DNA of 63,218 bases, filler included, from Basidiobolus ranarum (Eukaryota), in NCBI GenBank assembly GCA_040143965.1. It is 25 parts of 25 records of this genome, joined end to end, with 100 filler letters (N's around TTAATTAATTAA, not from the genome) between each part and the next. Parts side by side here need not be neighbours in the genome. Positions count along the whole stretch, not along the records: positions 50,700 to 53,125 come from JASJQH010003352.1; 24 more parts are not named here. The stretch is one strand, 5' to 3'. Shown piece after piece: positions 524 to 60,697 of the stretch. The first letter of the stretch is position 1. Every line of letters starts with the position of its first letter. Below the pieces are notes generated by a model. The model was given only the letters and a program-made list of their open reading frames with translations, was not told the DNA's origin and ran no database searches. Both the position numbers and the translations under genes were made by a program.

Positions 524-869
524 TGTTGAAATTAGCTTTGCCTAAACACCGATATAGTCGTATATAGCTTAGTACTTAGCTATCTTATAATTCACTAAGA
601 TATTATCAATTCTTCTCAATTCAAATTTACCTATAGCATATTTACCAACTTAGAAGTTCTCAGATATACATATTTTTCAAACTTGTGCTAGAAGCCCCTA
701 ACTCTGCACACATGTTTCTGGGACCTTCCTTAACACATTCTACATGTTAGTGTGTTTACATCTTGACAAACCACCAATGTTAACTTTCTACTCAAAAATC
801 AATAAGGGAAAACCACAAATTTCTCTATTTCTCCAAGCCACTTCCAACAGCCTCCCAAATACTTTAACA
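524..869 (+). repeat. Copia-A 3' LTR (346 bp, TGTTGAA...TTTAACA)
   Basis: TG...CA ends with short terminal inverted repeat, follows a PPT, and has many other copies in the window. Confidence 0.92.
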
Positions 870-3956: not shown

Positions 3957-4314
3957 TGTAAAAGTACTTGAGAGCCTGTCAGATGTTAAAGTACTTGGGT
4001 TAGGAGAATTAGAGAACCTGATAGTTTTCACATATTGATCTATTGAGTGGAAAGCTGACATTTATAGTTTTGTCAAGATGTAAGTAAACTAATGTGTAGA
4101 ATGTGTTCAGGAATGTCTCAGGAATGTGTGTGCAAAGTTTGGGGCTTCTAGCAGAAGTTTGAAAAATCTCTATATCTGAGAACTTCCATGTTGGTGTCAA
4201 CATTCTAAGTAAGTTCCAATTGAGAATAATGCATAATATCTGAGTAAAATATAAGATAACCAAGTAATAAACTATATATGACTATAAAGTTGTTTAAGCA
4301 AAGCTAATATTAAT
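3957..4314 (-). repeat. Diverged LTR-A copy
   Basis: Colinear similarity with 1-333. Confidence 0.8.
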
Positions 4315-5089
4315 AGTTATGGTATGCAAGTTCAAAAGGAAATCCAGAGAATGCACTATGCTAGATATGTGGGCTTCATACAAACAACTTAGTCAAACAG
4401 ATATCATGGTTGATGAAGAAGAATTTATGAACATTTATATTTTATGAATCTCTACAATGAAATAAAACTTGGAAAGTTGATGCAAAAGATCAAGGTGACC
4501 AATTACACAAGTTAATATTAAAGCAATGTATTCTAGTTTTAGATGTGATCCCAATTCTGAGACATCAGTCCCTGCAGAGAAACTGTTGCTCACTATTGAC
4601 ATCAACAAACTCATTTAACCGGACTAGGGAAAACAACTCAGCATTGTGAGGAAAAAATCAATCAATATTTATACAGGCAAACATGCATACATCCTTCTAG
4701 CCAAAAGAATCATTATTCAAGATTTCTTCAAGGGCACCATTGATTGCATTTAGCAATATATTATGACATGCAACTTTAATAACAGTAAGGAATTATGTGG
4801 TACCAATCCTTTTGCCAACACCATGCAGCTCCCTTCTGAGAGACCTGTCTTCAGGAATATATTAATAGACCCACTGGATGAATATCAACCAGAACTAGAT
4901 AAAAAACTTTCAGAAATTTACCCTTCTCCATCAGAATCGTCTTTTTCATCCACTTACATCTTTGTCTCCTCTTTGATTTATGACATTNNNNNNNNNNNNN
5001 NNNNNNNNNNNNNNNNNNNNNNNNNNNNNNNTTAATTAATTAANNNNNNNNNNNNNNNNNNNNNNNNNNNNNNNNNNNNNNNNNNNNCT

Positions 5090-7529: not shown

Positions 7530-7629
7530 NNNNNNNNNNNNNNNNNNNNNNNNNNNNNNNNNNNNNNNNNNNNTTAATTAATTAANNNNNNNNNNNNNNN
7601 NNNNNNNNNNNNNNNNNNNNNNNNNNNNN

Positions 7630-8939
7630 AAAAATTGCCATCTATTACTGGAAATATTTTTGTAAATCCCCTGATGAGGCATCCATGATGCGGTCTTAGA
7701 ATCAGCTGATGATATTGATGGGCAATACCTAAAATGCCACTCTTATATTGGAGGTGTTCTTTTCTTCTCAATATCCATCTCATACCACAACACAAACATA
7801 TAAAGAAACCCTGCTATTATTTGCTGCCAATTCTTCTGCTGAGGATGCCATAGTCTAGACGAAAAATAATTGCAAGTACAGTCACTGTACAAAGCCACCA
7901 GCTGCACAAAGCCTGGTGAATATCAGCAGTAAAAAGTGCACAAAATCAACTTCAGTTTTGCCCATGGTGTCCACTGATTATACTTTGTCTCACAGTTTTG
8001 ATAACACTGCTACTTGTCAAGATATCATGGAGTTACCACAGTTATATGACCAGATTTATGTAGATAGAAATGTAAATTTGGTCAAACCATTAAGTCCGGA
8101 CAACTTTGAAGACATGCTGCTAAATGTTGACCTTGGTTATTCCAGTATTGATGGTGGTATATCCAAAGCTGAAGAAGAAGGTGATGGTTTTGTTAGGGAC
8201 TCTTTGTTATTGGCAAGCATTAGTCCACTCATAACACTCACTGTAAAGGAAGCAGCTTTGATTATTAAGGAGTGGAGAGTTCAATCCAATCTTAGCAACC
8301 AGGTGTTTATTGGTTTTCTGGCACTTTTATCTTGTTTGATTGGCAACTGTTGCTTGCCACAGACCTGGTACAAGTGGAAAACACTTGTCAAACATATGAC
8401 TTATAATCCTTTAGTAATTGAACTACATTCATGTCTAAATGGTTGTTTGGCTTTCACCAGTATTCTCAAAACCTGAAGTAACAACCTGAAGTCAGGTACT
8501 ATTTGCACACAATTGGCAATCACTGAATCAGGTATATATTGTTCATATTGGGCTTACACATAGTTGATTCCCCATCTTAAAGTTTTGATGAAATAACCCA
8601 AATATAGATCATTGATCCAATACCAAAGTACTCACCATAAAGCTAATGGTATTATTGATGTACTTAATGGATATCACTACCAGAATCTGAAAAGTCAAGG
8701 GTTTTTTGAGAACACATATGATAATGCATTTGCATTGGCTCTGGATGGTTTCTCACTAAACAAATATACTGTTGGAAAGGCTTGCTGGTCAAAAATTTAA
8801 TTAACATAAATCTTCCTGCCTCTGAACAATACAAGAGTCATACTATTTGATATTATCCATCACTTCTGGAACTAAATCACCAGTGCTTATAGATAGCTTC
8901 TTGGAGCCTTTGATTGCAGAATTTGAGTGGTTATCTAAT
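7630..8939 (+). mobile_element. CMC/EnSpm transposon: intergenic spacer and 5' half of Tnp2-family transposase (ORF1), degenerate
   Basis: IELHSCLNGCLAF, DVLNGYHYQNLKSQGFFEN, ALALDGF, NLPASEQYK and IDSFLEPLIAE motifs; interrupted at 8940 by a second copy. Confidence 0.85.
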
Positions 8940-13860: not shown

Positions 13861-14069
13861 TGAAATTTTCAGATGCTAAACTTAGTGTAGTGAAATTGCT
13901 TAGAAACAGCTTATAATAAACCAAAATTGCCATTCATTACTGAAAATAACTTGAAAATCCCCTGATAACTCATCTGTGACACTGTCTCAGAATTAGCTGA
14001 TAATATTAATGTGCTATACCTAATACACCACCCTTACATTGCATGTATTCTTTTTCCTATAATATCCTA

Positions 14070-15052
14070 CTCACGCTATAATCCAAATACTTAAAGAAGC
14101 CCTGCTATTATTGTCACAAATTCATGTGCTATGAAGCCAGAGAATTTACAAAAAACAATCACCAGCTTGGTCACTGTACAAAGCCACCAGCTGCACAAAA
14201 CCAGGTGAATATCAATGGTAATAAGTGCACAAAATTGACTTTAGATTTGCCCACTGAGTCCACTGCCCATGCTTTGCCTCAAAGTTTTGGTATTGCAGCC
14301 AAAAGCCAAGATACTGCAGAGTTAACACATTTGTATGACCAGAATGATATAGGTAGAAATGCAACCTTGGTCAAACTAGTAAGTCCAGACAACTTTAAGG
14401 ACATGATGTCAGATGTTGACCTTGGCTATTCCAGAACTGATGGTAGTATATCAAAAGTTGAAGACAAGGACAATGGTTTTGTTATAGACCCTTTGTTAGT
14501 GGCAAGCATTAGTCCACTCATAACACTTACAGTAAAAGAAGTAGCTTTGATTATCAAGGAGTGGAGAGTTCAATCCAATCTTAGCAACATGGTGTTTATT
14601 GGTTTTCTTTCATTTTTATTACAGTTTATTGGTAAACTGTTGCCTGCCACAGACCTCACTCAAGTGGAAAACACTTGCAAATAGTAAGACTTATAATCTT
14701 TGAGTAGTTAAACTACCTTCAAGTCCAAATGGTTGTTGGCTTTCACCAGTGATCTCAAAAACATGAAGTCAAGCATTGTTTGCACACAATTGGCAATCAC
14801 TGCATGAGGTAAATATCATTTGTATTTGGCTTCCATATGATTGATTCCCATCTTAAAGTTTTGATGAAAACACCCAAATATACATTATTGATCCAACACC
14901 CAAGTACTCACTGTAAAGCTGTTGGGATTACCAATATGTTTTATGAATATCACTACCAGAATCTTAAAAGTCAAGGTTTCTTTGAGAACACACATAATCA
15001 TGAATCTGCATTGGTGCTGGATGGTTTCTCACTTAACAAACACACTGTTTGA
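14070..15052 (+). mobile_element. CMC transposase ORF1, 5' part, degenerate
   Basis: KKPCYYCHKFMC, SISPLITLTVKE, YQNLKSQGFFEN and LVLDGF motifs. Confidence 0.85.
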
Positions 15053-15998: not shown

Positions 15999-16905
15999 TG
16001 TTAAGCATTTGGGAGCATGTTGTAAGTTATTGTAGAATTAGCAAAATTGGCGGTTCTTACTTATAGATTTATTGAGTAGAAAGTTGACAGTTATATTTCT
16101 GTCAAGATGCAAACTAACTAATATGTTGAATATGCTAAGGAAGGTTCCAGGAATATATCTGCAAAGCTTGGGGTTTCTAGCACAAATTTGACAAAATCTA
16201 TATATCTGCAAACTTCAAAGTTGGTAAAAATATTCCATGTAAAATCCAATTGATGTTGATGGGTAATATCTTAGTAAGTTAAAAGATAGCTAAATACTAA
16301 GCTATATACAACTATATTGGTGTTTAAAGTGTAAGATAACTAGATACTTAGCAATATGCAACTATATAGGTGCTTAGGCAATGCTAATTTCATCACTCTC
16401 CATCACTTAATAGTCAGGTAAACTAATCCCAAGGAAGGTCAAAATTTCTCAAATTTCTGTCTAGCTAGTGGTATGGTCAATATGTCAGCAATATTATCTT
16501 CTGTTAAACAATAAGTCAAGCCAATAAACTTATTCTTTATAGTATTTCTAATAAAAAGATGTCTGATATCTATATGTTTACTTTTATTATGAAATGTGGG
16601 ATTTCCAGCTAATTTGACACAACTTTGATTATCTTGAAATATTGTAGTTGGTGAATTTTGACAATATCCCAAATCTGGTATGAGTTTTCTTAACCATGTT
16701 GCTTCTTTTGTTGCTTCACAAGCAGCCATGTATTCTGCTTCTGTAATTGAAAGTGCCTTGATAGGTTGTATATGTGAATTCCAAGAAATAGCTCCATTAC
16801 AGCAAAGAACTAGGTATCTGGTTATAGATCTCCTGTCTTTAATATATCTCTGCTACTTTACATCTGAATATCCCATCAGATCAAAGTTTGATGCAGAATA
16901 TGTTC
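15999..16905 (-). mobile_element. Copia-A 3' end: RNase H, PPT and LTR-A (15999-16395)
   Basis: EATKEATWLRKL, DNQSCVKLAGNPTFHNKSKHIDIRHLFIR and ADILT motifs. Confidence 0.88.
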
Positions 16906-17786: not shown

Positions 17787-18617
17787 TGGGTATATCTGCC
17801 AATCTCTCCACTGCCTTTCATCCCCAATATGATGGCCTAACACAAAGAGTCAATTAAGTTTTTGAGCAATACTGGCAATACATTATTAACTATAATCAAG
17901 ATATTTGGACCCAACTGTTGCCTCTTGCTGAGCTTGCTTACAACAACTCTTATCCTACTTCAATAAAACAAACTCCTTTTGTGGCAAATTATGGATTACA
18001 TCCTCAATTCACAATTCACCCTCCATCTAATATACCTTGCACTGCTGCCTCAGGTTGTGCCACTTTCCTTAAAGACATCCATAAACAGTTAATGTCCAGG
18101 TTGGAGCATGCTCAATCTGTATATAAGAGCTTTGCTGATAAGAAAAGAAAGCTAAACCCAGATCTCAAGCCAGGAGATTATGTAGTGCTAATTTGTAAAA
18201 ATATCAAGACCACCAGACCTTGTGACAAACTTGATCATAAAAAACTATGGCATTTTAAGATTTTTAAGCAAATCAATTCAGTAGCTTTCTGCCTTGAGCT
18301 CCCAGACAATTTCAAAGTCAACAATGTGTTCCATGTAGCTGTCCTAGAGTCACATTCCAGAAATACCTGCCAAGCCTGATCCAATAGCCCACCCCCAGTG
18401 ATTCAAGTTGAAGAACAGCCTGAATATGAAGTTAGCAAGATTCTGGATCCAGAATTTTTCAGCGTAAAATGCAAAATTTAGTGGACTGGAAGGGATGTAG
18501 AACACATGATCAATCATAGAAGCCAGCAACAAATCTTTCCAACTTTGAGGAACTTTGCAAAGAGTTTCATGAAGCCTACCCTGAAAAACCTGGCCCTATG
18601 ATCACTAAAGGGGATAC
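17787..18617 (+). mobile_element. Chromovirus-type Gypsy integrase, chromodomain and PPT, degenerate
   Basis: STAFHPQYDG, LPLAELAYNNS, KTTRPCDKLDHK, VFHVAVL and EYEVSKILD motifs; AAAGGGGATAC precedes the LTR. Confidence 0.9.
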
Positions 18618-23592: not shown

Positions 23593-24671
23593 ATGAGGCT
23601 TCTTTTACTGGGTTTTCTCTCTTTGACTTTCGTTGATTCCTCTTTAGGTGTTGAACACCTGAGTAATATTGTAGGTGGAAAGCCCGTTGTTCAAGATGGT
23701 CTACCTTTTATGGCCCACTTGATAATAGAAAATAAGCCCGAATGTGGTGGCGCATTGATAGGTGATAAGTGGATTATCACTGCTGCACATTGTTTGGTTA
23801 AAAGCGTTAACTCTGTCGTACGAGGACAGCTTCTAAATATCATACCTTCCAAGATTCAAGTTATTCTGGGAACAGTCAAGTCTAATTCCACTACACCATA
23901 CACTATCAATCAGTATACTCTAGCTCCAGACTTTGACATTGTCGAGTACAAGGTATTTCAATATTCAGTTTAGAAATCTAGTTCAATATTTAATATTGTT
24001 TATTTTAGAATGACATTGCCATCATTGAGTTAAGCACTTCAGTACAATTCACTAATAGCATTCAGCCCATTGGTGTTAGTCAACAACCCGTTAAAGAGAA
24101 ACAGATTGTGACAGCTGCTGGTTGGGGCTCCACCGAGACCCAAAATTTTGCTGATACTTTATATGAAGTGAATTTGGAAATTGGAGCGGAGGCGAAGTGT
24201 GCAACGGTCGTCAACAAATACGCTGGACTTGGGGACTCAAGGATATGTGTTATCAATAGCCTCGGACATGATACTTGCTATGGAGATTCTGGTGGCCCAC
24301 TTTTTTATAAAGAGGCAGGTCAATATTCAATGTTAGGTGTTACTAGTTACGGGTTACAGAAAAACCATAATGAAAAGTTTAAATGTGGGGATAATAACAC
24401 TTACGGCGTATACACACGTTTGGCAAGTTTTACTGATTTCATCAGAAATGTTACTGGCCTCACTGAAGCACAACTACATCCTGGATATTATACAACTAAT
24501 ACCTCAATTTCTGGTGGTATTGCAGCCGGAGCAGAGTCGACTACCAATAAATCGGAGAAAGTCAACGGTAACAATATCTCTGGTACTGGGATACTCGCTG
24601 TAAGCAACCTCCTCGAAATAATCGCCCTGAGTTATACAACCTATTTGATTCAGTTAATTATTGTTAACTAA
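23593..24671 (+). CDS. Secreted trypsin-like S1A serine protease, one intron (23953-24008), hydrophobic C-terminal tail
   Basis: Signal peptide, IVGG mature start, CGGAL, TAAHC, NDIA, DTCYGDSGGP and YGVYTR motifs. Confidence 0.95.
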
Positions 24672-37959: not shown

Positions 37960-39952
37960 NNNNNNNNNNNNNNNNNNNNNNNNNNNNNNNNNNNNNNNNN
38001 NNNTTAATTAATTAANNNNNNNNNNNNNNNNNNNNNNNNNNNNNNNNNNNNNNNNNNNNATTGGGATACATTGGTGTTGATACCGGCTTGCTATTCTCCA
38101 TGTTGAAGCAGTTTAGGATATGTAGGATGTATTTAGACTGATTCAGCATAATTTCCTGATTGGGTTCATCTCTCTTGATTTGGATTCCAAGAAAATAACT
38201 TTATTCACCCATATCAGTCATCTGAAATTGGTTTGATCAGCTGCTTTTTGTCTTATTAAGAGCTTCTAGATCATTAGGGGCTGTGATTAAGTCATCCACA
38301 TATAGTGCCAAGATAAGCATCCTATTTCCGGTTTTTTTGATGTAAATACTGTGATCTGCTGTGCATTTTTGGAATTCCAGAGATTCCAAATAGGTGTCTG
38401 TCTTGTTGTACCATGCTCTGGGCACTTGCTTGAGTCCATAGAGTGATTTTTACAGTTTACAGACCATATCAGGATGTAATGGGTCAACAGATCCATCTGG
38501 TTGCTTTGTATAGATCTCTTCTTCTAGATTTCCAGTCAGAAAGGCTGCTTTAAGACCCATTTGATGCAGATCAAGGTTATGGATGGCTGAGAGTGCCAGG
38601 GTTGATCTAATGGAGCTAAACTTAGCTACTGGAGAAATGGTTTCATTGAAATCAACTCCTGGAGTCTGGGAATAGCCCTTTGCAACTAATCTTGCTTTGT
38701 ACCTTTGCGGGGTTCCATCAGCTTGGTTTTTGACTTTGTAGACTCATTTGCAACCTATTGGCTTTCTTCCGAATGAAAGAGGACTTAAAACCCATGTTTT
38801 ATTGTCCTGAAGTGAAGAATACTCCTCTGATCATGCTTTTTCCCATAAATTTGAATCTGGACACTCCAGAGCTTGATCTAGAGTCTGTGGCTTGTCACAG
38901 AAGGCTGCATAAGCATATACATCATTGTTGGAGGTGTTGCACCAGTTTCCTGGCTTATTTCTCCTTCTGGATGATCATCTGGGACATGAATCATCCTTTG
39001 ATGTAATTCAGACTGAAATTTTGGTTGAATAGGGCTCAGATATAGCTGGAACTTTATCAGACACTTCCTGAATAGTGCTGATTGTGTTTTCTGGATCAAG
39101 AACAGTAATTTGAGGTGAAAAATTTGCTTTTTGATCAAAAATCACATCTCTGCACTTGATTAACTTCTGATTTTTGGTATCAAACAGTCTGTAGGCCTTG
39201 AATCCATCACAGTAGCCAGCAAATATGCATTTTCTGCCTTTCGGTTCCAATTTTGAGTGTTTTTGAGCAGGAATTAGGCAATATGCTGGGCAACCAAAGA
39301 TCCTGAGATGATCCACGCTTGGTTTTGATCTATACAGGGCTTCAAATTGAGTAGAAATTTGTAGCAATCTTGTTGGGCATCTGTTTTTGATATAGACTGC
39401 AGTGAAGACAAATTCCGGCCAATATTGGTAATCTAACTTTTGATCATGTAATATTGATCTTGCCATCTCCACTATGATCCAATTAGCACATTCTGCAACT
39501 CTATTTTGCTGTGGAGTATAAAGTACAGTAGCTTGTTGCTTAATTCCATGTTTAGAGTCAGAACTAGCAAAGTCTTTAGAGCAGCATTCTCCACCATTAT
39601 CACTCCTTAGTACCCTTATTTTTTGTGCTGCTTCTTTCTCTACCATTGCTTTGAGTGCTTGAACATAACTAAAGCTTCAGATTTAGATTAAGAAAGAACA
39701 CCCATGTATATGTTGTTTCGTCATCAATAAAGTCCATAAAGTTCCTTTTCCCACACAGTGAGACATATTCATGTGCCCACATAGGTCAGAATGAAGCAGG
39801 GAAATATTCTGAGTAGATTTAATCTCTCTAGAGCTTGAAAACAGCTTTCTGTGCTGTTTTCCATATATGCAACCTTCACACAGATCCAATTTAGTGCTAT
39901 TTCCAATTTCCAAGCCTGAAACAAGCTGATTTTGGATCATTTGGGTCAGTTT

Positions 39953-40234
39953 TGTTGAAATTATTTAGGGAGAAATATTGGTCTGGCCAGGAATTGAACC
40001 TGGGACCTCCTTCACTCTAGCAAGATGCTCTAACCACTGAGCTACCAGTCCTTGTATGCTATGGCTCTATTGCTAGGGAACCTTAACCTAGTCTGTCAAT
40101 GTATGGTACTTTGGCATTTCAGCTTTACAAGCAACTGATTGGCCATAGACTTTGTGTTCAGATGCAGTCACCATACTCAATATTTTCCTCTTTGAGAATT
40201 ACTGCTTGTACCACAAGTCACCAGACTTTGAACA
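39953..40234 (-). mobile_element. Solo LTR-C (282 bp) containing a tRNA-like cassette; TSD AGTTT
   Basis: TGTTGAAA...TTTGAACA flanked by AGTTT (39948-39952, 40235-40239); second copy at 51892-52173. Confidence 0.88.
39979..40051 (-). ncRNA. tRNA-like sequence within LTR-C (probably not a translational tRNA)
   Basis: GGACTGG TA GCTC AGTGGTTA GAGC A TCTTG CTAGAGT GAAGG AGGTC CCAGG TTCAATT CCTGG CCAGACC A: cloverleaf with A and B boxes and an imperfect anticodon arm. Confidence 0.8.
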
Positions 40235-40638
40235 AGTTTTTGCTTCCCAATATGTCCTAGTCTTCTATGACATGTTTGACAATGTATTTCACCAGCTTTA
40301 GCCAAGTTCGCATGCTCAGAATGCAATTTGGTGATTTCTAGCTTGTATAAGTTTTTAATTTTGAGCCAAGTAGCGAATTTGGTATTATTCTGATCGGTGA
40401 TAGTTATCCAGCCTTAGTGAACAAGAAATTTAGTCCTTGAGCAGTTGCTTGGCTTACTGAGAGTAGATTCTTGGCTACATTTGGTACATNNNNNNNNNNN
40501 NNNNNNNNNNNNNNNNNNNNNNNNNNNNNNNNNTTAATTAATTAANNNNNNNNNNNNNNNNNNNNNNNNNNNNNNNNNNNNNNNNNNNNTTTAACTTTTA
40601 ATCTTGCCTTTTGTCTAATCTATTACTCTCATACAAAG

Positions 40639-45868: not shown

Positions 45869-47079
45869 ATACTTGTCATCTTATTCCTTCTTATTACAAT
45901 AAACCCCTTGCACATACTTTAAACCAACTAACCGAAATACCGAATCTAATTGTGAACCGAGTTGATTTCCATCGGTTTGTCACGGAGCGGGATTTAAATT
46001 TATCCAGATTTCTTCCTCATCTGTTAATCAAATCCAATTTAGTTTTTACTTTGTAATATGTTCAATCACTTCCAGAACATTGTCTTAACAGTACGGGAAT
46101 AAAATATTGCGATCGGTAAATCCCATTAAAGGTCATTGCTTAGGCTAGGCCGTAATAGCTTATAGTGGTAAGAGAGATGTGAGGTAGCATGTTGGATAAG
46201 TTGTAGCAATAGTGAAAGCTGAATAATGAAATTCTGGTAAGCAATGATTACCATATCATGCACACAGGGTATCACTCTCATCTGTATCAAGCACTATCGG
46301 TCGGTTGCTTAGGGTTTGTACAGGGGAATATTAATATGTTCATGATCAAGTTCATCTTTATTATAACCAAGTGGGACTCCCATACAGCACATTCTCTGTG
46401 GTTGCAATACATACTTGTAGCATGCAAATATATTCCATGGATTATTACTGGCATGTTTTTGTGAGCAACTGTGCTTGATCCTTACTATTACAAACAGTTA
46501 ACTTTTTTTCCGTCCTGATTCAAACAAGGATTGCATGGGATGTTGTCATTATTTTCTATCTATATTCTTGTTCCATTACAATAGGGTTGATGAATCTCAA
46601 ATCCTAATAATAGAGTGAAATTGGTAGAAACAGATATGTCCTGTCAGTGTAAGTCAGTGTTTTTTGTTAACACCAATCAAATTTCTCAGGATCAATCAAT
46701 TATGGCCAAAAGTCAACCACATTTCCAGAAGTTCCATAAATTAAATGTTTTCATATAGACAACCACTATATACTTCATGTATGTAGCCAAGATGCTATTT
46801 CTCAGCAATTACAACTTAGAAAGAGATCCCCAAGGTAATTTCTTCCTGTAGAAGTTGATCAGAAGGATATGTTGTAGTAGTCTTGTTTTGTGTTCCTGTA
46901 TATTGGCAAGCAAAGACATTGAAATGAGCTCTCTTCATGGAGACATCTCTAACAACTTCATGGATTGTGCTCAAGATGATAAATGAATGAGACTGTATCT
47001 TGATTTGTTCCATCAGTTTTTATTTAGTAACTATTGTGCATCAACATATAAAATAGAATAAATTAAACTATCTCTTTTC

Positions 47080-47332
47080 TGGTTAAGTATTTGGGAGCCT
47101 GTTGGAAGTGGTTTGGAGAATTAGAGAAACTGGAGGTTTTGACTTATGGATTTATTGAGTTGAGAGTTGACATTTATAGTTTCTTAAAGGTGTAAGCAAG
47201 CAAACACTTAGAATGTGTTAAGAAAGGTCCCAGGAACATGTGTGCAAAGTTTGGGGCTCAGCACAAGTTTGAAAATCTATATATCTGAGAACTTCAAAGT
47301 AGGTAAAAATATTCTAAGTAAGTTCTGATTGG
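47080..47332 (-). repeat. Partial LTR-A
   Basis: Matches 1-240. Confidence 0.82.
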
Positions 47333-47869
47333 GTACACAGTCTATCAAGCTATCAGATATATTCTGTTGAATAGAGCCCACTTCAATGTATCTTTATTTA
47401 TGATCATAACATAAACAAAACTTGCCTCTTTCAATTTTCATTTCTGATTTGGACATTTTGTTTCACAAACATATAGTAGCCCATAGGAATGTTAAGGGAA
47501 GATGTTACTTTCAGTCACTTCCAATACATTATATGCTGAGAAACAGTACTTCCTCTATATAAGCAAAGCTATAATAGTGGTCAATATGAAAAAGATTTAT
47601 AGGATAGTATTCTTCTAATATGGTGAGCTCCTATCCATGTTTGATAGTACACATAGTTCATATAAAACATGCAATAATAATGACCAAAACTACAATGTAA
47701 GCAGTTTGAGTCTTATGAGATATAGCGTTTGGAAATATAATCATAAATATAAAATTTTAGTGCAAAAAAATGCTGAGCTCAAAACCAATTCACTTACTGT
47801 AATGAATATAAATGTGTGTAATATCACCAAGGTTGTAAAATTGCTTTCATAATATCATAGACTGCTCCT

Positions 47870-48072
47870 TGTTGATATTGGCATTGCTAAGCACCTATAT
47901 AGTCATATATGTTGAAATTAGCATTGCCTAAACACCTATATAGTCATATATAACTTAGTAATTAGTTATCTTATAACTCACTAAGATATTATCAATTATT
48001 CTCAATCGGAATTTACTTAGAATATTTTTACCAACTTAGAAGTTCTCAGATATATAGATTTTTCAAACTTGT
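47870..48072 (+). repeat. LTR-A start with a second LTR-A start about 40 bp later
   Basis: TGTTGATATTGGCATTGC... followed by TGTTGAAATTAGCATTGCC. Confidence 0.8.
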
Positions 48073-48201
48073 NNNNNNNNNNNNNNNNNNNNNNNNNNNN
48101 NNNNNNNNNNNNNNNNTTAATTAATTAANNNNNNNNNNNNNNNNNNNNNNNNNNNNNNNNNNNNNNNNNNNNAATTGTGGCTAATTAGGTAGGCTACCAG
48201 A

Positions 48202-48273
48202 GCCTGCTTAGCACAGTGGCAGTGCATCTGTCTTGTAAACTGAAGGTTGCCAGCTCAATCCCAGTAGTAGGTG
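48202..48273 (+). pseudogene. tRNA-Thr(UGU) pseudogene
   Basis: GCCTGCT TA GCAC AGTGGCA GTGC A TCTGT CTTGTAA ACTGA AGGTT GCCAG CTCAATC CCAGT AGTAGGT G, then TTTTT; damaged T-loop and stems. Confidence 0.75.
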
Positions 48274-48580
48274 AGTTTTTAAACAACCATTAGAATTGGT
48301 AAATCATTTGATATTCTGGAGTTTAATGAGTATAAACAAATTAAATCTATTCCTATTTTTACTACTATCAAACTATTGAATCTTTAAATTAATTTCCTGG
48401 AATTAGCATATCTCATGTTTACATTTACCAGATTTGATCATTGTGTTACATTTATTGTTTAGTTTACATTTGTACTTCTGATCACACCTAATAATTGAAA
48501 GTTAGTTTGATACATATTGTTGAGTAAACATTGAATCTGTTTTGTAACTTCCATTTCATGGCTATAAAATACAGATGTTA

Positions 48581-49217
48581 CTTTTAAAGTATTTGGGAGC
48601 CTGTTGGAAGTGGCTTGGAGAATTAGAGGAATTGGTGGCTTTCACTTGTTGACTTATTGAGTAGAAAGTTGACATTTATAGTTTTGTCAAGATGTAAGCA
48701 AATTAACCTGTAGAATGCGTTAAGGGAGGTCCCAGGAGCTGTTGAAATTAGCATTGCCTAAACCCCTATACAGTCATATAGAGCTTAGTACTTAGTTATC
48801 TTATAATTCACTAAGATATTATCCAATATTCTCAATTGCAACTTGGAATATTTTTACCAACATAGAAGTTCTCAGATATGTAGATTTTCAAGCTTGTGCT
48901 AAAAGCCCCAAGCTTTGCACACATGTTCCTAGGACCTTTTTTAACACATTCTACATGTTAGCTTGTTTACATCTTGACAAAGCTACAAATGTCAACTTTC
49001 TACTCAATAAATCAACAAGTGAAAACCACCAATTTCTCTAATTTTCCAAACCACTTCCAACAGGCTCCCAAATGTTAAAAGTAGCATTGCCTAAACACCT
49101 ATATAGACATATACAGCTTAGTACTTAGTTATCTTATAATTCACTAAGATATTATCCATTATTCTTGATTGGAATTTACTTCAAATATTTTTACCAACTT
49201 AGAAGTTCTCAGATATA
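48581..49217. repeat. Three nested LTR-A copies (48581-48739 minus, 48740-49072 plus, 49073-49217 plus)
   Basis: Each matches 524-869 or its reverse complement. Confidence 0.85.
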
Positions 49218-49608
49218 TTAGGGTTTAGGGGCAATGATAAGTACCAGAAGGTGTAATATTTATTGATCAATTTAGACAAAGTCAATACATAAATAAGCCA
49301 AGTGAGAATATAATATTCAAAGAAAAAGTCAAGATGTTGACAGAGCTAAGTTTCCTAGTAAGCTAAGCCTAAGAGTGTCCCAGATGGGATGGAGCCAAGA
49401 GTAAAGTATTCCAGAAAGGATGGGGCCTGAGTAGAGTTTTCCAGCAGGGATAGAGCCAAAAGTAAAGAGTTCCTAGTGAGCTAGGCCTGAGAGTTGCTGA
49501 TAGTCATAAGTTGCTGTAAGCTCAGAGGTAAGAGCTGGGAAGGTGCCTTTAGTTCCTTCCCAAGTAAGCATAAACAGAGTGAGAGTAGTATAGAAATAGA
49601 GAGAGAAG

Positions 49609-50134
49609 TGTTGAAGTTTACTGTCTTGATCATATTTGTTATCTCTATGCTTATACACCTAACTATCTCATATATCACATATAAGTTAGCTAACATTACT
49701 TAGTCAAATATCACTTAGCTGAAAATTGGAACATATATTATATATATATGTGAATAATGTGAGAATTAGCAATTCCATATTGGAAATTTCAAACTTGTCC
49801 AAATTGCCCCAAGAATAGCTCATTTTACTCCTACAGATGTTCTGAACACAACCCCAGTGTTAGTTTTCTGTATTTCTACCAAAATGAATAAATGCTTTAT
49901 TTCTGGACAATAAATAATTATCTCACAAAGCTATTCACAACTCCACTTTTCTACAGTTCCTCCAAACAGCCCATACTTTCCCAATGGGTTATGAGCCCCA
50001 TGTTCTAACCTTTACAGCATGACAGAAACCACCACTACCACTTCTATTAACTCAAGTGTTGAAAAGCTTGATGGAGAAAATTACAATTTCTGGAGGTTCA
50101 AGATGCAAATCATGCTGGAGGACAGGGAGCTTTG
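49609..50134 (+). mobile_element. Copia-B 5' end: LTR-B (49609-49986), PBS (49987-49998) and gag start (50019)
   Basis: MTETTTTTSINSSVEKLDGENYNFWRFKMQIMLEDREL. Confidence 0.9.
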
Positions 50135-50599
50135 TGTTAAGGTATTTGAGAGCCTGTTGGAAGTGGTTTTGAGAAATAGAGAAATTGGTGGTTTTCACTT
50201 ATAGATTTGGTGAGTAGAAAGTTGACATTTTTAATTTTCTCAAGATGTAAACAAACTAATATGTAAAATATGTTAAGGAAGGTCCCAGGAACATGTGTGC
50301 AAAGTTTGGGGCTTCTAGCACAAGTTTGAAAAATCTGTATATCTGAGAACATCTAAGTTGGTAAAAATATTTCAAGTAAATTCCAATTGAGAATAGTAGA
50401 TAATATCTTAGTGAGCTATAAGATAACTAAGTACCAAGTTACATATGACTATATAGGTGTTTAGGCAATGCTAATTTCAACACTCTCCCTCAACTAAATA
50501 ATCATATACGCTAATCCTAATAAACGTCTAAATTTCTCAAATTTCTGGCTAGCTAATGGTTTGATTAATATATCAGCAATCATGTCATCTGTAGAACAA
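50135..50599 (-). mobile_element. Copia-A 3' end (RNase H, PPT, LTR-A 50135-50482) inserted in Copia-B gag
   Basis: DDMIADILIKPLA on the minus strand; PPT reads CTCTCCCTCAACT on the plus strand. Confidence 0.88.
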
Positions 50600-51891
50600 N
50601 NNNNNNNNNNNNNNNNNNNNNNNNNNNNNNNNNNNNNNNNNNNTTAATTAATTAANNNNNNNNNNNNNNNNNNNNNNNNNNNNNNNNNNNNNNNNNNNNC
50701 ATCTTAACTCTGAGTTACGACCTGGCTTAGTCGCCTTTGCCTCTCAAATTAACCCAAAACGTAATACAAGTCGGTAGGGAATAAAGGGTATGGTTCGGTG
50801 TAAGCCGTGATGCCTGGTTTTTGATTTTTCCATGATTGGCTCAAATCCAGGTGTTTTTGGTATGATTTTGCATAGTTTGCAAAATGTTAAACCATTGATC
50901 ATCAGAGCAAGTGAAGATAGCTCTGACATTCACAGTCTTATAGTTTGCCAGTTTTCCTATGACATTTCTACCTTCATGTGCCCAAGCAATTTGATGTTGT
51001 TGTGTATACTGAATCATCAACACATATTCTGCTCTGCTAGATTGCCACAGTGATGTTCATATATATGGTGTGGATTGATTGAAATACCATATGAGAATGG
51101 ACAGAGGGAGCAGCATGTAGCTGTAGCTCAAGTAGAGCATTCTGAAGGTCTTGTATTATTGTTGAGTGACTCTCTAACTATTGACTAGTTGCTTCCAAAT
51201 GCTGCATTAATTGCTATATTGTGGCATTTTTACTTGTCATGGCCTGCATAGCAACTTCACAGTTTTTATTGATGATTGCATACAAATCATTGCAGTGTAT
51301 TGCCTGCAATTCCCTTGCAGTAACAAATCTATCCAAATTTTCTGCCAAGGGCTGTTCAATAGTGGGCAAAGTAGCCATTTTGGAAGTTGATGGGCTTCAC
51401 AGTGTTTTAGTAGAACTTTACAAGGAATACATCTGGTAGATTGATTAATGCTTCATCATTAATTGAGTTAGTTATTGGCATATTAAGACCCTCCAAAGTG
51501 GATAGCAGATTGCTAGACTGCTCATCAAATAAGTCCTCTGTACTTGCGGGTTTTTTTCCTTTTGTGCCAGTGGGTTTTGGCTCGGCAGCTGATTTTGACT
51601 TAGTTTTTGAATGCTTTTTGAATGGCATTGAAATCAACAGATGGAAAACTTGGTGTCAAGAAATTGGTTTGAAACAGCTTATAATAAACCAAAATTACCA
51701 TCTATTACTGGAATCATCTTGTAAATCCCCTGAAGACTCATCTGTGACACTTTCTTAGAATTAGCTGATGCTGTTGATGGGCTATACCTAAACTACCTCA
51801 CTTTAATAGGGGGTGTTCTTTTTTCACACTATCATTCTCATGCTACATCACAAATGTTCAAAGAAGCTCTGCTTTATTGTCACAAATTCTT

Positions 51892-52173
51892 TATTGAAAT
51901 TATTTAGGGAGATATATTGGTCTGGCCAGGATTTGAACCTGGGACCTCCTTCACTCTAGCAAGGTGCTCTAACCACTGAGCTCCTAGTCCTTGTATGCTA
52001 TGTCTATGCTGCTGGGGAACCTTAACCTATTCTCTCAATGTATGGTACTTTGGCATTTAAGTAATACAAGCAAATGATTGGCCTTTAACTTTGTGCTCAG
52101 ATGCACTCACCATACTCCATATTTTCCTCTCTGGGAATTACTGCTTGTACCACAAGTCTCCAGACTTTCAACA
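51892..52173 (-). mobile_element. Solo LTR-C (282 bp) containing a tRNA-like cassette; TSD TTCTT
   Basis: TATTGAAA...TTTCAACA flanked by TTCTT (51887-51891, 52174-52178); absent from the other CMC copies at this site. Confidence 0.88.
51918..51990 (-). ncRNA. tRNA-like sequence within LTR-C
   Basis: GGACTAG GA GCTC AGTGGTTA GAGC A CCTTG CTAGAGT GAAGG AGGTC CCAGG TTCAAAT CCTGG CCAGACC A. Confidence 0.8.
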
Positions 52174-53232
52174 TTCTTGTGCTCTGAAAGCCAAGGGCTT
52201 CATAGAAAAAATAATCACAAGCACAGTCACTGTGCTAAGCCACCGGCTGCACAAAGCTTGGTGAATATCAATGGTAATAAGTTCACAAAATTGACTTTAG
52301 TTTTGCCCACTGAGTTCACTGACTGTAGTTTGCTCTTAAATTTTGTTAACACTGCCAAAAGTCAAGATGCCATGGATTTACCACAGTTTTGTGACCAGAA
52401 TGATGTAGATAGAAATGCAACTTTGATTAAACCAGTAAGTCTAGATAATTCTGATGACATGCTGCCAGTCCGTGACCTTGGCCACTCCAGTACTGATGGT
52501 AGTATATCAGAAGTTGAAGAAGAAGAAAACCCTTGTGCTATAGACTCTTTGTGATTGGCAAGCATTAGTCCCCTCACAACACTTACTGTAAAGGAAGCAG
52601 CTTTGATTATTGAGGAGTGGAGAGTTCAATCCAAATATTGCAACCAGGTGTTCATTGGTTTTCTTACACTTTTACCACAGTTGATTGGCTATAGTTGCTT
52701 GCCACAGACCTGGTACTAGTGGAAAATACTTGTCAATTGTATGACTTATATTCCTTCAGTAATCAAACTACCTTCATGTCCAAATTGTGGTTTGGCTTTC
52801 ACCGGAAATCTGAAAAACCTGAGGTCATGTACTGTTTGCACACAATTGGCAATCACTTAGTCAGGTAAATAATGTTCATAATTGGCTTATAAACCATTGA
52901 TTTCCTGTCTCAAAGTATTGATGAAATCACCCAAATATAGATCTTTCATCCAATTCAAAGGTACTCATCATAAAGCTGATGGGAATACCTATATACTTGA
53001 TGTACATCACTACCTGAATCTGAAAAGTCAAGGTTTCTTTGAGAACACCTATGATCATACACATGCATTGGCTCTGGATGGTTTCTTGCTAAACAAATAT
53101 ACTGTTTGAAAGGCTTACTGGCCAANNNNNNNNNNNNNNNNNNNNNNNNNNNNNNNNNNNNNNNNNNNNTTAATTAATTAANNNNNNNNNNNNNNNNNNN
53201 NNNNNNNNNNNNNNNNNNNNNNNNNGGATTAG

Positions 53233-53991
53233 GTGGTTTCAACTTTTAGTGTTGGTTACGATCATATCGATGTTCCTATCTGTAACGAATATAAGGTTAA
53301 AGTCGGCAACACCCCTGGTGTGCTGACTGATTCCACGGCTGATATAACAGCTTCTCTGGTATTACTCGCTGCACGTCGAATCTCTGAAGGCATTGATGCT
53401 GCGAGAAATGGGATTTGGAAAAATGGGGATCCTTCTTGGTTACTTGGTGTCCAATTGACTAATAAAACGTTAGGAGTGGTAGGTCTTGGGCGTATTGGGG
53501 AAGCATCAGCGAGTCGTTTGAAAGCACTCGGAATCTCTCGTGTTTTGTATACCGGTCGCCATGAGCGTAAAGAACAAGCCTCAAGGTTAAACGCTGAATT
53601 TACCGATTTTGATACTTTATTAAAAGAATCGGATGTGATTATAGTATGTTGTGCATTGACCGAAGGCACCCGCGAAATATTTAACTACGATGCGTTTAAA
53701 AAGATGAAACGTAACGTTATTTTTGTTAATACTGCCAGAGGAGGTATAGTCCAACAGGATGATTTGGTACGCGCTCTAGAGGAAGATCTAGTTGGCGGGG
53801 TTGGTTTAGATGTAACTACACCGGAACCTCTACCTGTTGATCACCCACTTTTCAAATGCAAGAAGTGCGTGATTTTACCACACATCGGTAGTGGTACTGT
53901 AGAAACTAGAAGCGCCATGGGTTGCATTGCTATTGATAATTTGATGGCTGGCTTGGAAGGAAAAGAGCTTCCTTTCTCAGTCAAAAATTGA
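53233..53991 (+). CDS. Glyoxylate/hydroxypyruvate reductase (D-2-hydroxyacid dehydrogenase), last exon
   Basis: SVGYDHID, VGNTPGVLTD, GLGRIG, FVNTARG, GLDVTTPEPL and LPHIGS motifs; preceded by a TTAG acceptor. Confidence 0.95.
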   Translation: MVSTFSVGYDHIDVPICNEYKVKVGNTPGVLTDSTADITASLVLLAARRISEGIDAARNGIWKNGDPSWLLGVQLTNKTLGVVGLGRIGEASASRLKALGISRVLYTGRHERKEQASRLNAEFTDFDTLLKESDVIIVCCALTEGTREIFNYDAFKKMKRNVIFVNTARGGIVQQDDLVRALEEDLVGGVGLDVTTPEPLPVDHPLFKCKKCVILPHIGSGTVETRSAMGCIAIDNLMAGLEGKELPFSVKN

Positions 53992-54083: not shown

Positions 54084-55373
54084 TTAAGTGGCTTTGGGGT
54101 AATCAGAGTAACCTATACTCTTATCACCATCCTTAGTCAAGTATAAAGTTGACATATCAGTAAGTTGAGATAATTCTTTTCCTTGAAACAATCGTTCAGC
54201 AAAATCAGGGTTTGCTAAATAAGGTCTTGCATAGGCTATCGCGTCAGCTTTGCCTTCCTTAACCCATTGATCACCTTCTTCGGGGCTGAAGTCACCGTTC
54301 GCAATAAATAGTGAGTTTTTCACCAAAGGTCGGAAAACCTTTTCTATCTCGATAGGAGTGCCACGACCAATCGGATCAAAGAATTCGAAATGTCTCGCTA
54401 TCTGGATATAGCCAATCTTTCTAGAATCTATTTCCTTTATGAGATGGGAATACAACGATACCGCATCATCATATTTTTCACCCATGTCGTTGTATCCACC
54501 GGATGGACTCAATTTGATTCCAACTCTCGAGGCTCCCCAAACATTAATAAACTCATCGATGATTTCTAGAGCGAAACGGGTACGATTTTCAATGGGTCCT
54601 CCATAGTCGTCAGTACGTTTATTTGAGTGCTGTTCTAGAAACTGAGATACCAAATAGCCATTAGCTGCGTGAAGCTCAACCCCATCGAAGCCCGCCTTTT
54701 TCGCGTTTACAGCGGCTTGTGCATACATCTTAACATAGTCTTTAGGATTCTCGATAGCTTCAGGAACGGGATACCCGGGTGTGCTTAGTAATGTTAGATT
54801 TTAAATATACCACACTGTACCAAGATTATCAATAAACCTACCCATTTAACAAGCGGAATTTTCCTCCTTTTGCGGCTATGGCGGAAGGTGCTGGTGGTGG
54901 TACACCGCAGTTATGTAGTGTGTGTGCAGCTCTGCCAAGATGCCATAACTGAGCCCAAATCAAACCACCTTCTTTATGTACCGCATCAGTGATCTTTTTC
55001 CTAATTTGAATAACGTGAGTCAATACACACGCAACATCAAGAATAAAAATCTACTTACCACCCAGCAATTTGTTTGCTATTCCATAAACCTGGTGCTTCA
55101 GGCCATTCGGTTCCCTGGGGCTCGATTAGTGTGCCTTCAGATAAAATTAGGCCAGCTCCTGCTCTTTGAGCATAGTAGTCTACATTAATGTCGTCTGGAT
55201 AGATGTTACGGTTACGCGTCATAGATGCCATGATTACTCTTTCAAATAAAGAATTGTAAACATACAAATACGCCCAATATATGCATATACACTAATATAG
55301 GTTACCGATTTTTAAGCTGAAGCTCGCCTAATTGAACCGACTGAGAAAGTGCTTGATACAATGATTTTGCCAT
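54084..55373 (-). CDS. Old yellow enzyme (NADH:flavin oxidoreductase), 4 exons
   Basis: LKNRVIMASMTR, YYAQRA, QLWHLGR, AGFDGVELHAANGYL, NKRTDDYGG and RPYLANPD motifs; three GT-AG introns. Confidence 0.95.
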
Positions 55374-55750: not shown

Positions 55751-57207
55751 TTAGTGAGAGACCATCCAGAGCCAATGCAAATGCATGATCATATGTGTTC
55801 TCAAAGAAACCTTAACTTTTCAGATTCTGGTAGTGATGTCCATCAAGTATATTGGTAATACAATAAGCTTTACAGTGAGTACTTTGGTAATAGTTTGCTA
55901 ATCTATATTTGTGTGATTGGTCACATTTTTAAGATGGGGAATCAATGGCACACAATCTAAAAATGAGTATTATTTATCTGATTCACTGATTGCCAATTGT
56001 GTGCAAACAGTACATGACTTCAGGTTTTTCAGATCACTGGTGAAAGCCAAATCATCATTTAGACATGCAGGTAGTTTAATGACTGAATGGTTATGAGTCA
56101 TACAATTGAGAAATGTTTTCCACTTGTATCAGGTCTGTAGCAAGCATCAGTTGCCACTCAAATAGGGTAAAAGTGTCATAAAACCTATAAGCACCTATTT
56201 GCTAAGATTGGATAGAACTCTCCACTCCTCAATAATCAAAGATGTTTCCTTTACTGTAATTGTTATCCGTGGACTAATTTTTGCCATTAACAAAGAGTCT
56301 ATAACAAAACTGTCATCCTTTTCTTTAACTTCTGATATACTACCATCAGTACTGGAATAAACAAGGTCAACATCTAGCAGGATGTCCTCAAAGTTGTCTG
56401 GACTTTCTGGTTTGACCAAAGTTGCATTTCTATCTATATCATTATGGTAATAAAACTGTGTTAACTCCACAGTATCTTAACTTTTGGCAGTGTTACCCAA
56501 ACTTTGAGGTAAAGCACAGCCAGTGATCTCAGTGGGCAAAACTAAAGTCAATTTTGTGCACTTAGTACTGTTCAGATTCATCTGGTTTTGTGCAGCTGGT
56601 GGTATTGTACAGTTACTGTGCTTGTAATTATTTTTTCTATGAAGCCTCTGGCTTTCCCGGCACAAGAATTTATGACAATAATAGCAGGGCTTCTTTAAAT
56701 CTTTGTGTTGCAGCATGAGAAGAATATTGTAGAAAAAATAACCCCTCCTATATAAGGGTGGTATTTTAAGTGTAGCCTTGCACTATCATCAGCTGATTCT
56801 GAGATGGTGTCACAGATGAGTCATTAGGGGATTTACAAAATATTTCCGGTAATGGATTGTAATTTAGGTATAATATAAGCTGTTTCTAAGTAATATCACT
56901 ACATCAAGTTAACCATCTTAAAATTTCAATGCCATTCAAAAAGCATTCAAAATCAAAATCAAAATTGGCTTCCAGGTAAAGCCTGCAGGCACATAAGGAA
57001 AAAAAACAAGCAAGAGTGGAGGACTTCATTGATGAGCAGTCTGGCAATCAACTATTCACTTTGGAAGGTATTGACATGCCAGAAACTAACTCAAGTAATG
57101 AGAAAGCATTGATCACTTTGCCAGTAGTGTTCCATTCTAGCAATAGGGCAAGTGAAGAGATTGTAATCCCCCAATTACACAGTAAGTCAATAGTTGAGCA
57201 AAGTTCA
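55751..57207. mobile_element. CMC internal region in reverse: ORF1 5' part (minus, to ~56716) and ORF2 start (plus, ~56928)
   Basis: MLQHKDLKKPCYYCHKFLCRESQRLH on the minus strand; ATGCCATTCAAAAAGCAT on the plus strand. Confidence 0.85.
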
Positions 57208-58274: not shown

Positions 58275-58882
58275 CGCCTCCAAAATTAGGAAAGGCTTCC
58301 TGAAGCTATGGGTATCTTTGCCAATCTCTCCACTGCCTTCCATCCCCAAACTGATGGCCAAACAGAAAGAGTCAACCAAGTTTTGGAACAATATTTGTGG
58401 TGCACTATTAACTATAATCAAGATAATGTTGCCCTAAATAATTTCAATAGATATTTGGACACAACTCTGGCCTCTTGCTGAATTTGCTTACAACAACTCT
58501 TATCATACCTCAACAAAACAGACCCTATCTTTGCAAATTATGGACTCCATCCTTGTTGCACAATTCACCCACCATCCAATCTACCTTGTCCTGCTGCCTC
58601 AGATCATGCCACTTTCCTTAAGGACATCTGTAAACAATTGATATCCAGGTTGGAGCATGCTTAATCCCAATACAAGAATGTTGTTGATAAGAAAAGAAAG
58701 CCAAACCCAGATCTCAAGCCAGGATATTATAAATGGCTAATCTGTAAAAATACCAAGACCACTAGATCTTGTGACAAACTTTATCATAAAAGACTAGGGC
58801 TTTTTACAATTGTTAAGCAAATCAATTCAGTTGCCTTCCACCTTGCAATCCCAGACCATTTCATAGTTCACAATGTATTCCA
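58275..58882 (+). mobile_element. Gypsy integrase fragment, degenerate
   Basis: [24 protein letters not shown]; colinear with 17787-18333. Confidence 0.9.
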
Positions 58883-58955: not shown

Positions 58956-59210
58956 TGTTGAAATCAGCATTGCCTAAACACCTATAGTCATATTGAGATT
59001 AGTGTTTAGTTATCCTATATTTCATAAAGATAGAACCCATTATTCTCAATTCAAATATATATAAAAATTTTTACCAACTGTGATGTTCTCTAATCTTTAG
59101 ATTTTCAAGCAGATGCTAGAAGCCCCAAGCTTTCCCCACATGTTGCTGGGCCCTTCTCAACACATTCTATATCCTGGTCTATTCCAACAGGCTCCCAAAA
59201 TACTTTTACA
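58956..59210 (+). repeat. Decayed, internally deleted LTR-A
   Basis: TGTTGAAATCAGCATTGCC...CCAAAATACTTTTACA. Confidence 0.75.
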
Positions 59211-59709
59211 AACCACTCCTGAACACTAACCATGGCAAAGTTACTTAGATTCTTTAAAGCCTGAAATATGTACATGCTGTAAACAGAACTACTTAGCATT
59301 TGCACTCATCAGAATTAACTCATCAGTTTGGGTAAATGCTCATCAAGTTTCAGCCAGGCCATCCCATTGCTAACTCAAGTCAATGTCCAGTGTCAATACC
59401 TTGTACTGATACTCAGTTATTAAAAGTTTCCAGTGTTTCAAAGTACTTATTTTGAAAGTTGTTATAAAGTTGGACCTTTTTTGACCTGTGGATATCATAA
59501 GAGAACATTGATGGTACAGGGATAACGAAAAAAAGGTACGATTCATTCGAGAATTTGGAGTTGCCTATCTTCACAATAAAGAAACGATTGCTTTTTAATG
59601 AAAAGAATCTAATCTAGAATATATTCTACAGAGTTTTTTATTACACCGTACAAAATATAGATATCGATGAGTTCAAATGGTGATAAAATACACTCTATTG
59701 AAAAGTTTA

Positions 59710-60697
59710 CTAAGGAATTTGGATCATAGCATCGCGACTGGCACCCACACCGATCCATTCTACTTTCGTACCAAGGAAGTTTTCGATGAACTTCACATAT
59801 TTTTGGGCATCAACTGGAAGTTCTTCGAACTTACGACACTTAGATATGTCAGATTCCCACCCAGGTAAGCTTTCATATTGTACTTCTACTTCTCCAAGTA
59901 CCTTCAAGTCAGCTGGGAACGATTCAAGAACCTTCCCATTAAGTTTATAGGCCGTAGCGACTTGGATTTTAGGGAATGTATCCAAGACATCCAGTTTAGT
60001 GATGTTGATACTAGAATACCCGTTAATAAGGTGGGAGTATTTTAGAACTACGAGATCCAACCATCCGCAGCGTCTCTTTCGACCGGTGGTAACGCCAACT
60101 TCAGCCCCAATAGTTTGTAATCGCTCACCATCAGCATCATGGAGCTCCGTGGGGAAAGGACCACCACCAACACGTGTGGTGTATGCCTTTACAACTCCAA
60201 TAACCTTTCCAATTCTGGTGGGTGGGATACCTAGACCTGTGCAGACGCCAGCAACACCGGTATTAGAGGAGGTAACGTAAGGGTAGGTACCAAAGTCAAT
60301 ATCAAGCATAATAGCGTTAGCTCCTTCTACCAATATTCTCTTATTGTCGTTAAGAGCTTTATGAATGAAGGAGACACCGTCAACTACAAACGGTTTGATT
60401 TTTTGCGCTAATTGCCTGTATCTTATGAGTTCAGCATCGACGTCGTAATCAAAGACACCGTAACGTTTGTGCTTCTTTTCTACCAGACTTCGGAATTTCG
60501 AGCTAAACTCTTCTTCGTCAAAAAGATGATGAACTCGGATACCATCACGGTTGGCTTTGGAAGAGTAAGCTGGTCCAATACCCTTCTTAGTAGAACCAAT
60601 ACTGCCTCGTCCTAACTCTTGCTCCTTAAGACAATCGCCGATTTGATGAAGGTCCAAGACGATATGAGCACTGTCAGAGACAAAAACTCGGCGATCA
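59710..60697 (-). CDS. ADE12: Adenylosuccinate synthetase, 3' part
   Basis: [64 protein letters not shown] and TKLDVLD motifs. Confidence 0.98.

Follow-up and report, generated by a model that had tools for sequence, protein, structure and literature searches.

A 282-bp unit carrying a tRNA-like module in the genome of Basidiobolus ranarum is, most probably, the solo LTR of a Helenus-type element, a class of miniature LTR retrotransposon with a tRNA-derived sequence in its LTR. We analyzed a stretch of 63,218 nucleotides (filler included) from assembly GCA_040143965.1, which joins 25 parts of 25 records (hereafter, the window). The unit under study (copy 2) spans positions 51892-52173, and the window holds three independent insertions of this kind, into three different older repeats.

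The repeat interrupted by copy 2 was aligned with three paralogous stretches (14010-14240, 56545-56775 on the reverse strand, and 7720-7950). The four-way alignment contained a single large gap, comprising the whole 282 bp plus one TTCTT, so copy 2 is an exact insertion and its boundaries are set to the base, with ends TGTTG...CAAYA (on the tRNA-sense strand; the orientation of the LTR itself was assigned by analogy). The original prediction had given a length of 282 bp common to both full copies, a TTCTT duplication of the target site (TSD) that differs from that of copy 1, and empty sites in other copies of the host repeat at ~14115 and, on the reverse strand, ~56660. All of these were recovered, and a third empty site was added (Table 1). 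A chance resemblance is ruled out by the exact TSDs and empty sites together with the E-values of the two modules under the Rfam tRNA model (2.9e-07 and 3.4e-09, whole window).

Table 1 Features of the tRNA-bearing unit, its insertion sites and the resident Copia LTR family in the window.
Feature	Position	Strand	Basis or remark
Solo LTR copy 2, 282 bp	51892..52173	-	Minus strand reads TGTTGAAAG...TTTCAATA
Left TSD of copy 2, TTCTT	51887..51891	.	Found once in three paralogous empty sites
Right TSD of copy 2, TTCTT	52174..52178	.	Identical to left 5-bp repeat
tRNA-like module, copy 2, 73 nt, nominal Ser-AGA	51918..51990	-	ARAGORN tRNA-Ser(aga); Rfam 48.3 bits
A-box-like GAGCTCAGTGG, copy 2	51973..51983	-	Linear positions 8-18; first base G, T in copy 1
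B-box-like GGTTCAAATCC, copy 2	51929..51939	-	Linear positions 52-62
Empty site, host-repeat paralogue, CACAAATTCATGTGC	14115..14129	+	Paralogue alignment
Empty site, host-repeat paralogue, CATAAATTCTTGTGC	56660..56674	-	Paralogue alignment
Empty site, third host-repeat paralogue	7827..7839	+	Paralogue alignment
Solo LTR copy 1, 282 bp	39953..40234	-	Minus strand TGTTCAAAG...TTTCAACA; inside Copia integrase part (Copia on minus strand)
Left TSD of copy 1, AGTTT	39948..39952	.	Flank sequence
Right TSD of copy 1, AGTTT	40235..40239	.	Flank sequence
tRNA-like module, copy 1, 73 nt, nominal Ser-AGA	39979..40051	-	ARAGORN tRNA-Ser(aga); Rfam 55.3 bits
A box TAGCTCAGTGG, copy 1	40034..40044	-	Module sequence
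B box GGTTCAATTCC, copy 1	39990..40000	-	Module sequence
Remnant of third insertion, 23 nt	58427..58449	+	LTR start (5 nt, TGTTG) fused directly to LTR end (18 nt, CCCTAAATAATTTCAATA), tRNA-sense orientation
Resident Copia LTR, 346 bp	524..869	+	Starts TGTTGAAATTAGC, ends AATACTTTAACA; polypurine tract GAGGGAGAG and Copia pol ORF end precede
Further resident Copia LTR copies	1-333, 3952-4308, 15999-16326, 47910-48072, 48740-49073, 50135-50482, 58956-59211		Relatives of 524-869

A blastn search with the unit across the window returned two full copies and one remnant only, with no two-LTR copy and no internal part with PBS or PPT. Copy 1 (39953-40234, 282 bp) is 90.4% identical to copy 2 over 280 nt, with 28 differences across 282 ungapped positions. 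The Copia integrase ORF that it entered is broken exactly at its ends: one ORF (40177-40413, minus strand), with a ...CHRRLGHIGKQK motif, reads into copy 1, and another (39683-39964, minus strand) resumes past it with ...KLTQMIQNQLVSGLEIG...CEGCIYGKQHR. Pfam domains rve (integrase core) and SH3_retrovirus were detected just downstream of the break (39008-39676, minus strand). The remnant was found via an 18-nt exact match to the LTR (E 0.001 within the window). Its locus has 28 nt more than a paralogue at 17787-18010, i.e., the 23 nt of the remnant and a 5-bp duplication that reads GATAA/GATAT or AGATA/AGATA. It lies inside a Gypsy-type integrase-like stretch and ends in CAATA, as copy 2 does. 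Beyond the window, metagenome contigs were scanned for exact occurrences of a 31-nt tRNA-like word and a 24-nt upstream word, each the same in both copies, with 0 matches for either.

With its own TSD, three empty sites and a different host sequence, copy 2 is an independent second insertion of a mobile LTR-type unit, as had been claimed. The further claim that the tRNA-like cassette moves as part of that unit is borne out by the empty sites of copy 2, by the Copia ORF that copy 1 splits and by the remnant of the third insertion.

The host of copy 2 does differ from that of copy 1, as predicted, but its label of CMC transposase (CMC/CACTA) was not confirmed by Pfam or the ESM Atlas and is at most tentative. 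The 14 ORFs of at least 70 aa in the four paralogous stretches gave no Pfam transposase hit at E ≤ 1, and their best Pfam matches were at chance level (GP4, 0.0011; Ty3_capsid, 0.063). In the ESM Atlas these ORFs fell into unnamed eukaryotic clusters; one further cluster, at rank 30 (score 0.83), has Transpos_assoc on 17% of its members, a weak lead to the class of the repeat and nothing firmer. The host repeat occurs at least four times within the window. The host repeats are ~79-81% identical among themselves versus ~90% for the two LTR copies, which indicates that the LTR family was active after the host families had spread.

The termini of the unit link it to a Copia family resident in the window. 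On the tRNA-sense strand the unit reads TGTTSAAAG...TTTCAAYA (TG...CA type), and its ends form 8-nt inverted repeats (TGTTGAAA/TTTCAACA). The resident family has LTRs of the form TGTTGAAATTAGC...ACTTTAACA with the PPT GAGGGAGAG in front, and nesting or truncation is seen in several of its copies. The plus-strand start of copy 1, TGTTGAAATTA, is the same as the first 11 nt of the 346-bp Copia LTR (11/11), and the other unit end, ACTTT(G/C)AACA (ACTTTGAACA or ACTTTCAACA), resembles the Copia LTR end ACTTTAACA. Given the TG...CA ends, the 5-bp TSD and these Copia-like termini, the unit was presumably handled by a Copia-type integrase, and, judged by sequence likeness, the 346-bp LTR likely marks the type of the autonomous partner. 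The 11/11 match falls on the strand where the tRNA-like part is antisense. It weakly favors an antisense orientation of the module, which would count against a promoter role; this evidence on orientation is weak because the LTR ends are near-palindromic.

The known elements closest in layout are Helenus (TRIMp3), a TRIM type whose LTR contains a tRNA-derived sequence (Kojima 2024, Biology 13:119; PMC10886601). In that account, fungal Helenus elements have 5-bp TSDs and share their PBS region with Copia, and some families are known solely as solo LTRs with 5-bp TSDs. The fungal LTRs in one passage of Table S1 are 116-269 bp long, all with a TSD of 5. All 26 complete fungal LTR consensuses in the first part of DataS1 have TGT as their first bases; in each, the tRNA-like part lies in sense orientation near the 3' end, with a short tail ending in ACA or ATA behind it. 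The unit described here has the same layout on its tRNA-sense strand (183 nt, then 73 nt of tRNA-like sequence, then a 26-nt tail). It also shares with Helenus elements a tRNA-derived module with boxes A and B inside the LTR, the 5-bp TSD, Copia-like termini, a prevalence of solo LTRs, TGTT...ACA/ATA-type ends and a nominal anticodon at odds with the tRNA body. In the same source, the box motifs kept in Helenus are TRGCY...YGG (A) and GGTTC (B) (section 3.5). Copy 1 has TAGCT..TGG and GGTTC; in copy 2, where the first base of the A box is altered, the motifs are GAGCT..TGG and GGTTC.

Likeness extends to short sequence details in the supplementary consensuses. The anticodon-loop heptamer CTAGAGT occurs 13 times in the supplement (e.g., in Helenus-9_PSt and Helenus-6_PTrit), Helenus-2_PTrit ends in ...TAATTTCAACA as the unit does, and the CAATA end of copy 2 and the remnant recurs in two rust LTRs. 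The differences lie in the length of 282 bp, slightly above the 116-269 bp of the Table S1 passage, in the 26-nt tail without the TTTT run that is present in most LTRs of the first part of DataS1, and in the window copies, which are solo LTRs and a remnant alone, without an internal PBS/PPT part. The host differs too: Basidiobolus is an early-diverging fungus outside the host table of the paper, where the fungal hosts are Pucciniales and Agaricales (Table 1 of PMC10886601), to which the text adds Amylostereum.

The comparison with the published Helenus consensuses was made by eye and by word look-up. The module words ctagagtga, gactggtagc, ttcaattcctgg, cctggccag and gagcatcttg had 0 occurrences in DataS1 of PMC10886601, and ggaggtccc had 3. 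As five of six words are missing, the family is not among the published Helenus families. The names "Basidiobolus" and "Zoopagomycota" had 0 occurrences in the same supplement. Among papers listed from 2024 onward, the name Helenus occurred in Kojima's own and in two that cite it. Among the matches listed in a search for Basidiobolus transposable elements or LTRs, none concerned such an element by title or abstract. The host lineage is new for Helenus-type elements within the literature searched.

The parent of the unit might instead have been full-sized, so that the unit would be the solo LTR of an autonomous Copia family with a captured tRNA or SINE sequence in its LTR, and no miniature non-autonomous element. 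The full copies in the window are all solo LTRs, which fit a parent of any size, and the ends and 5-bp TSD of the unit are Copia-like, as this reading would have it. The Copia internal sequences in the window are, however, flanked by LTRs of the unrelated 346-bp family instead of by the unit, whose layout and length fit the fungal Helenus LTRs compared. We consider a full-sized Copia parent unlikely.

A second possibility is that the unit resembles an LTR only outwardly, being a SINE of tRNA origin or the MITE of some DNA transposon whose insertion duplicates 5 bp. SINE2 elements resemble it in being short and non-coding with a tRNA-like module that has A and B boxes, which would supply pol III signals, and the 8-nt inverted ends would suit a MITE. 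The likeness to SINE2 stops at the LTR ends, the fixed 5-bp TSD and the 183 nt before the module. In tRNA-derived SINEs, the tRNA head sits at the 5' end, the 3' tail is LINE-type or A-rich, and the TSDs vary in length. Here, on the tRNA-sense strand, 183 nt separate the module from the 5' end, the 26-nt tail ends in CAAYA and is neither A-rich nor repetitive, and each of the three insertions has a TSD of 5 bp. Together with the 11-nt terminal match to the resident Copia LTR, these features make a SINE or MITE origin very improbable, and the unit is better read as the solo LTR of a Helenus-type element.

The module itself is clearly tRNA-derived in both full copies, measured against an Rfam tRNA gathering score of 29, and the original prediction had described its irregularities correctly. 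In the Rfam alignment, two non-standard pairs are common to both copies, 3:70 (AxA) and 31:39 (GxG), corresponding to the predicted A-A mismatch in the acceptor stem and the G-G pair closing the anticodon loop. An extra one, 6:67 (AxC), is found in the copy 2 module alone. No pair of the D or T arm was marked in either module, i.e., both arms are fully paired, as had been said. The nominal AGA (Ser) anticodon was likewise returned by ARAGORN, and a variable region of 5 nt leaves the module without the Ser-type long arm, as claimed. tRNA-Ser normally has a long variable arm, and an AGA anticodon without that arm is not expected to be charged with serine. A functional tRNA-Ser gene also has fully paired stems and a terminator T-run downstream.

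In this module, by comparison, there are two to three non-standard pairs, and no T-run of 4 or more was found in the 26-nt tail after it in either copy. No cloverleaf was obtained as the minimum-energy structure of the free RNA for either copy, and the anticodon arm never forms; the module folds no better than dinucleotide shuffles (z -0.30 and -0.15). A decoding role of the cassette is unlikely, given the two shared stem mismatches, the AGA anticodon on a class I body and the missing cloverleaf fold. That the cassette is a working tRNA gene, hitch-hiking on the LTR and adding decoding capacity to the host, is scarcely credible against the AxA and GxG pairs in both copies and AxC in copy 2, an AGA anticodon without the long arm expected for serine charging, folds that are neither cloverleaves nor better than shuffles and the lack of a T-run terminator, even with Rfam scores well over the threshold and intact D and T arms in its favor. 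Some room for such genes is left by Kojima 2024, who allows that a few fungal Helenus families possibly encode tRNA-His or tRNA-Thr (PMC10886601, section 3.5).

The odd anticodon arm with a nominal Ser-AGA anticodon is not new, as it is a documented by-product of Helenus. According to PMC10886601, most Helenus elements encode no usable tRNA, boxes A and B are conserved, and isotype model and anticodon disagree in many families. Predicted tRNA-Ser-AGA genes were found to lie inside Helenus in three rust genomes in proportions of 28/44, 90/95 and 154/160 (Table 2 of PMC10886601). The Basidiobolus module and the rust "Ser-AGA" modules have in common the CTAGAGT loop, a class I body that lacks the variable arm and a location close to one end of the LTR. 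We nevertheless regard it as quite unlikely that the module of the unit shares descent with the rust modules. If it did, tRNA-bearing TRIMs would either be older than the divergence of Basidiomycota from the zoopagomycete lineage or have been transferred among distant fungi. This would contrast with the view of Kojima 2024 (PMC10886601), which proposes that Helenus originated by SINE2 insertion into a TRIM LTR, with repeated independent births.

Two other groups of non-autonomous LTR elements offer parallels. The LTR of the 5S-bearing elements (Cassandra) also contains a fragment of a small-RNA gene that includes an internal pol III promoter (PMC10886601, PMC10853983, PMC12486564). Their module is 5S-derived and the one here tRNA-derived, the unit having no Rfam 5S match. 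Retrozymes have a structured small-RNA motif in the LTR (PMC10886601 Discussion); it is a hammerhead in their case, whereas the unit matched no ribozyme family at E ≤ 1. No hammerhead, other ribozyme or 5S match was found among the other Rfam families in the unit at E ≤ 1, and the sole other Rfam row there was a chance match on the opposite strand (23.3 bits versus a gathering score of 65.7).

We infer for this family a two-LTR parent, a Copia partner, an LTR orientation on the tRNA-sense strand and pol III transcription of the unit. The two-LTR parent would have been transcribed, probably from the internal pol III A and B boxes of the tRNA-like module, and a Copia-type element may then have supplied, in trans, the packaging and reverse transcription of its RNA. 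Insertion of the cDNA by the Copia integrase would produce the 5-bp duplication, and later LTR-LTR recombination would leave the solo LTR. The tRNA-like part, if kept at all, would be kept as an internal pol III promoter, and the odd anticodon arm would represent decay of a tRNA part not needed for the promoter, not a special device. For Helenus in general, pol III transcription is described as unproven, with pol III transcripts demonstrated for Cassandra alone (PMC10886601 Discussion).

The original prediction had taken the pattern of mismatches to suggest retention for promoter or structure instead of decoding. Its non-decoding side agrees with the stem mismatches and the AGA anticodon on a class I body, and its structural side gains no support from the folds. 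Between copies 1 and 2, the tRNA-like part differs at 4 of 73 positions versus 24 of 209 outside it. This difference is not significant (Fisher p = 0.175, two copies), and the proposal that the tRNA-like part is better conserved than the rest of the LTR was not kept. The four module differences are at position 8, in the A box, at 59, which is an N position of the B box, at 27, in the anticodon arm, and at 6, in the acceptor stem, and a comparison of the A and B boxes with the anticodon arm has no power, as it rests on two copies. TTTT is missing from the whole tRNA-sense strand, and equally so in 36% of mononucleotide shuffles of copy 1; the idea that this strand avoids pol III terminators was dropped for that reason. 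A bacterial-type promoter and terminator scan was set aside as irrelevant to a eukaryotic pol III unit.

Both LTR copies have 0 CpG. Across the window, CpG observed/expected is 0.33 and that of TG and CA is 1.26, versus CpG values of 0.70-1.04 in five gene ORFs, a depletion suggestive of cytosine methylation and decay directed at repeats; restoring CpGs, as the original prediction proposed, is reasonable in principle. Where the usual B-box consensus has CG, both copies have CA, which fits such decay. The copies agree at almost all former CpG candidates, so the decay would have occurred mostly in the source lineage before insertion, or the family never had those CpGs. The AxA and GxG mismatches are not explained by CpG decay.

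The window as a whole is eukaryotic, AT-rich (GC ~0.32-0.40) and full of nested repeats, with long intact host-gene ORFs between them. These encode adenylosuccinate synthetase (59713-60696, minus strand), a 2-hydroxyacid dehydrogenase (53233-53991, plus), an old-yellow-enzyme-type oxidoreductase (54084-54800, minus), a Raptor-like HEAT protein (5036-7585, plus) and a trypsin-like protease (24009-24671, plus). The adenylosuccinate synthetase ORF shares 88% identity with a Basidiobolus meristosporus protein and 87% with one of B. ranarum, and its next matches (68-71%) are from other early-diverging fungi. Paired runs of 44 N bases, 12 bases apart, recur every ~2540 bases and touch neither LTR copy; they look like masking and not like assembly gaps.

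A further Rfam tRNA match at 48202-48273 (plus strand, 42.5 bits, anticodon TGT, Thr), on which ARAGORN was silent, is unique in the window. Two of its T-arm pairs and one anticodon-stem pair are broken, and TTTTT follows directly. It sits in a 3.4-kb cluster with at least six resident Copia LTR pieces (47077-50482), and one of the N-run pairs hides the sequence just upstream of it. This match may represent a degenerate tRNA gene to which Copia insertions were drawn, or a further repeat with a tRNA in it.

The element type is already known, and the understanding of tRNA-bearing LTR elements is unchanged by these copies. What they add is range, as Helenus-type elements are extended to an early-diverging fungal lineage that is missing from the host table of the describing paper (PMC10886601). 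The new host lineage bears on the question of single versus multiple origins of tRNA-bearing LTR elements. Three nested insertions and a total loss of CpG form a small record of transposon order and of repeat-directed CpG decay in this genome. For its annotation, "tRNA-Ser(AGA)" genes called in it are likely to be repeat-borne pseudo-tRNAs, as documented in rust fungi.
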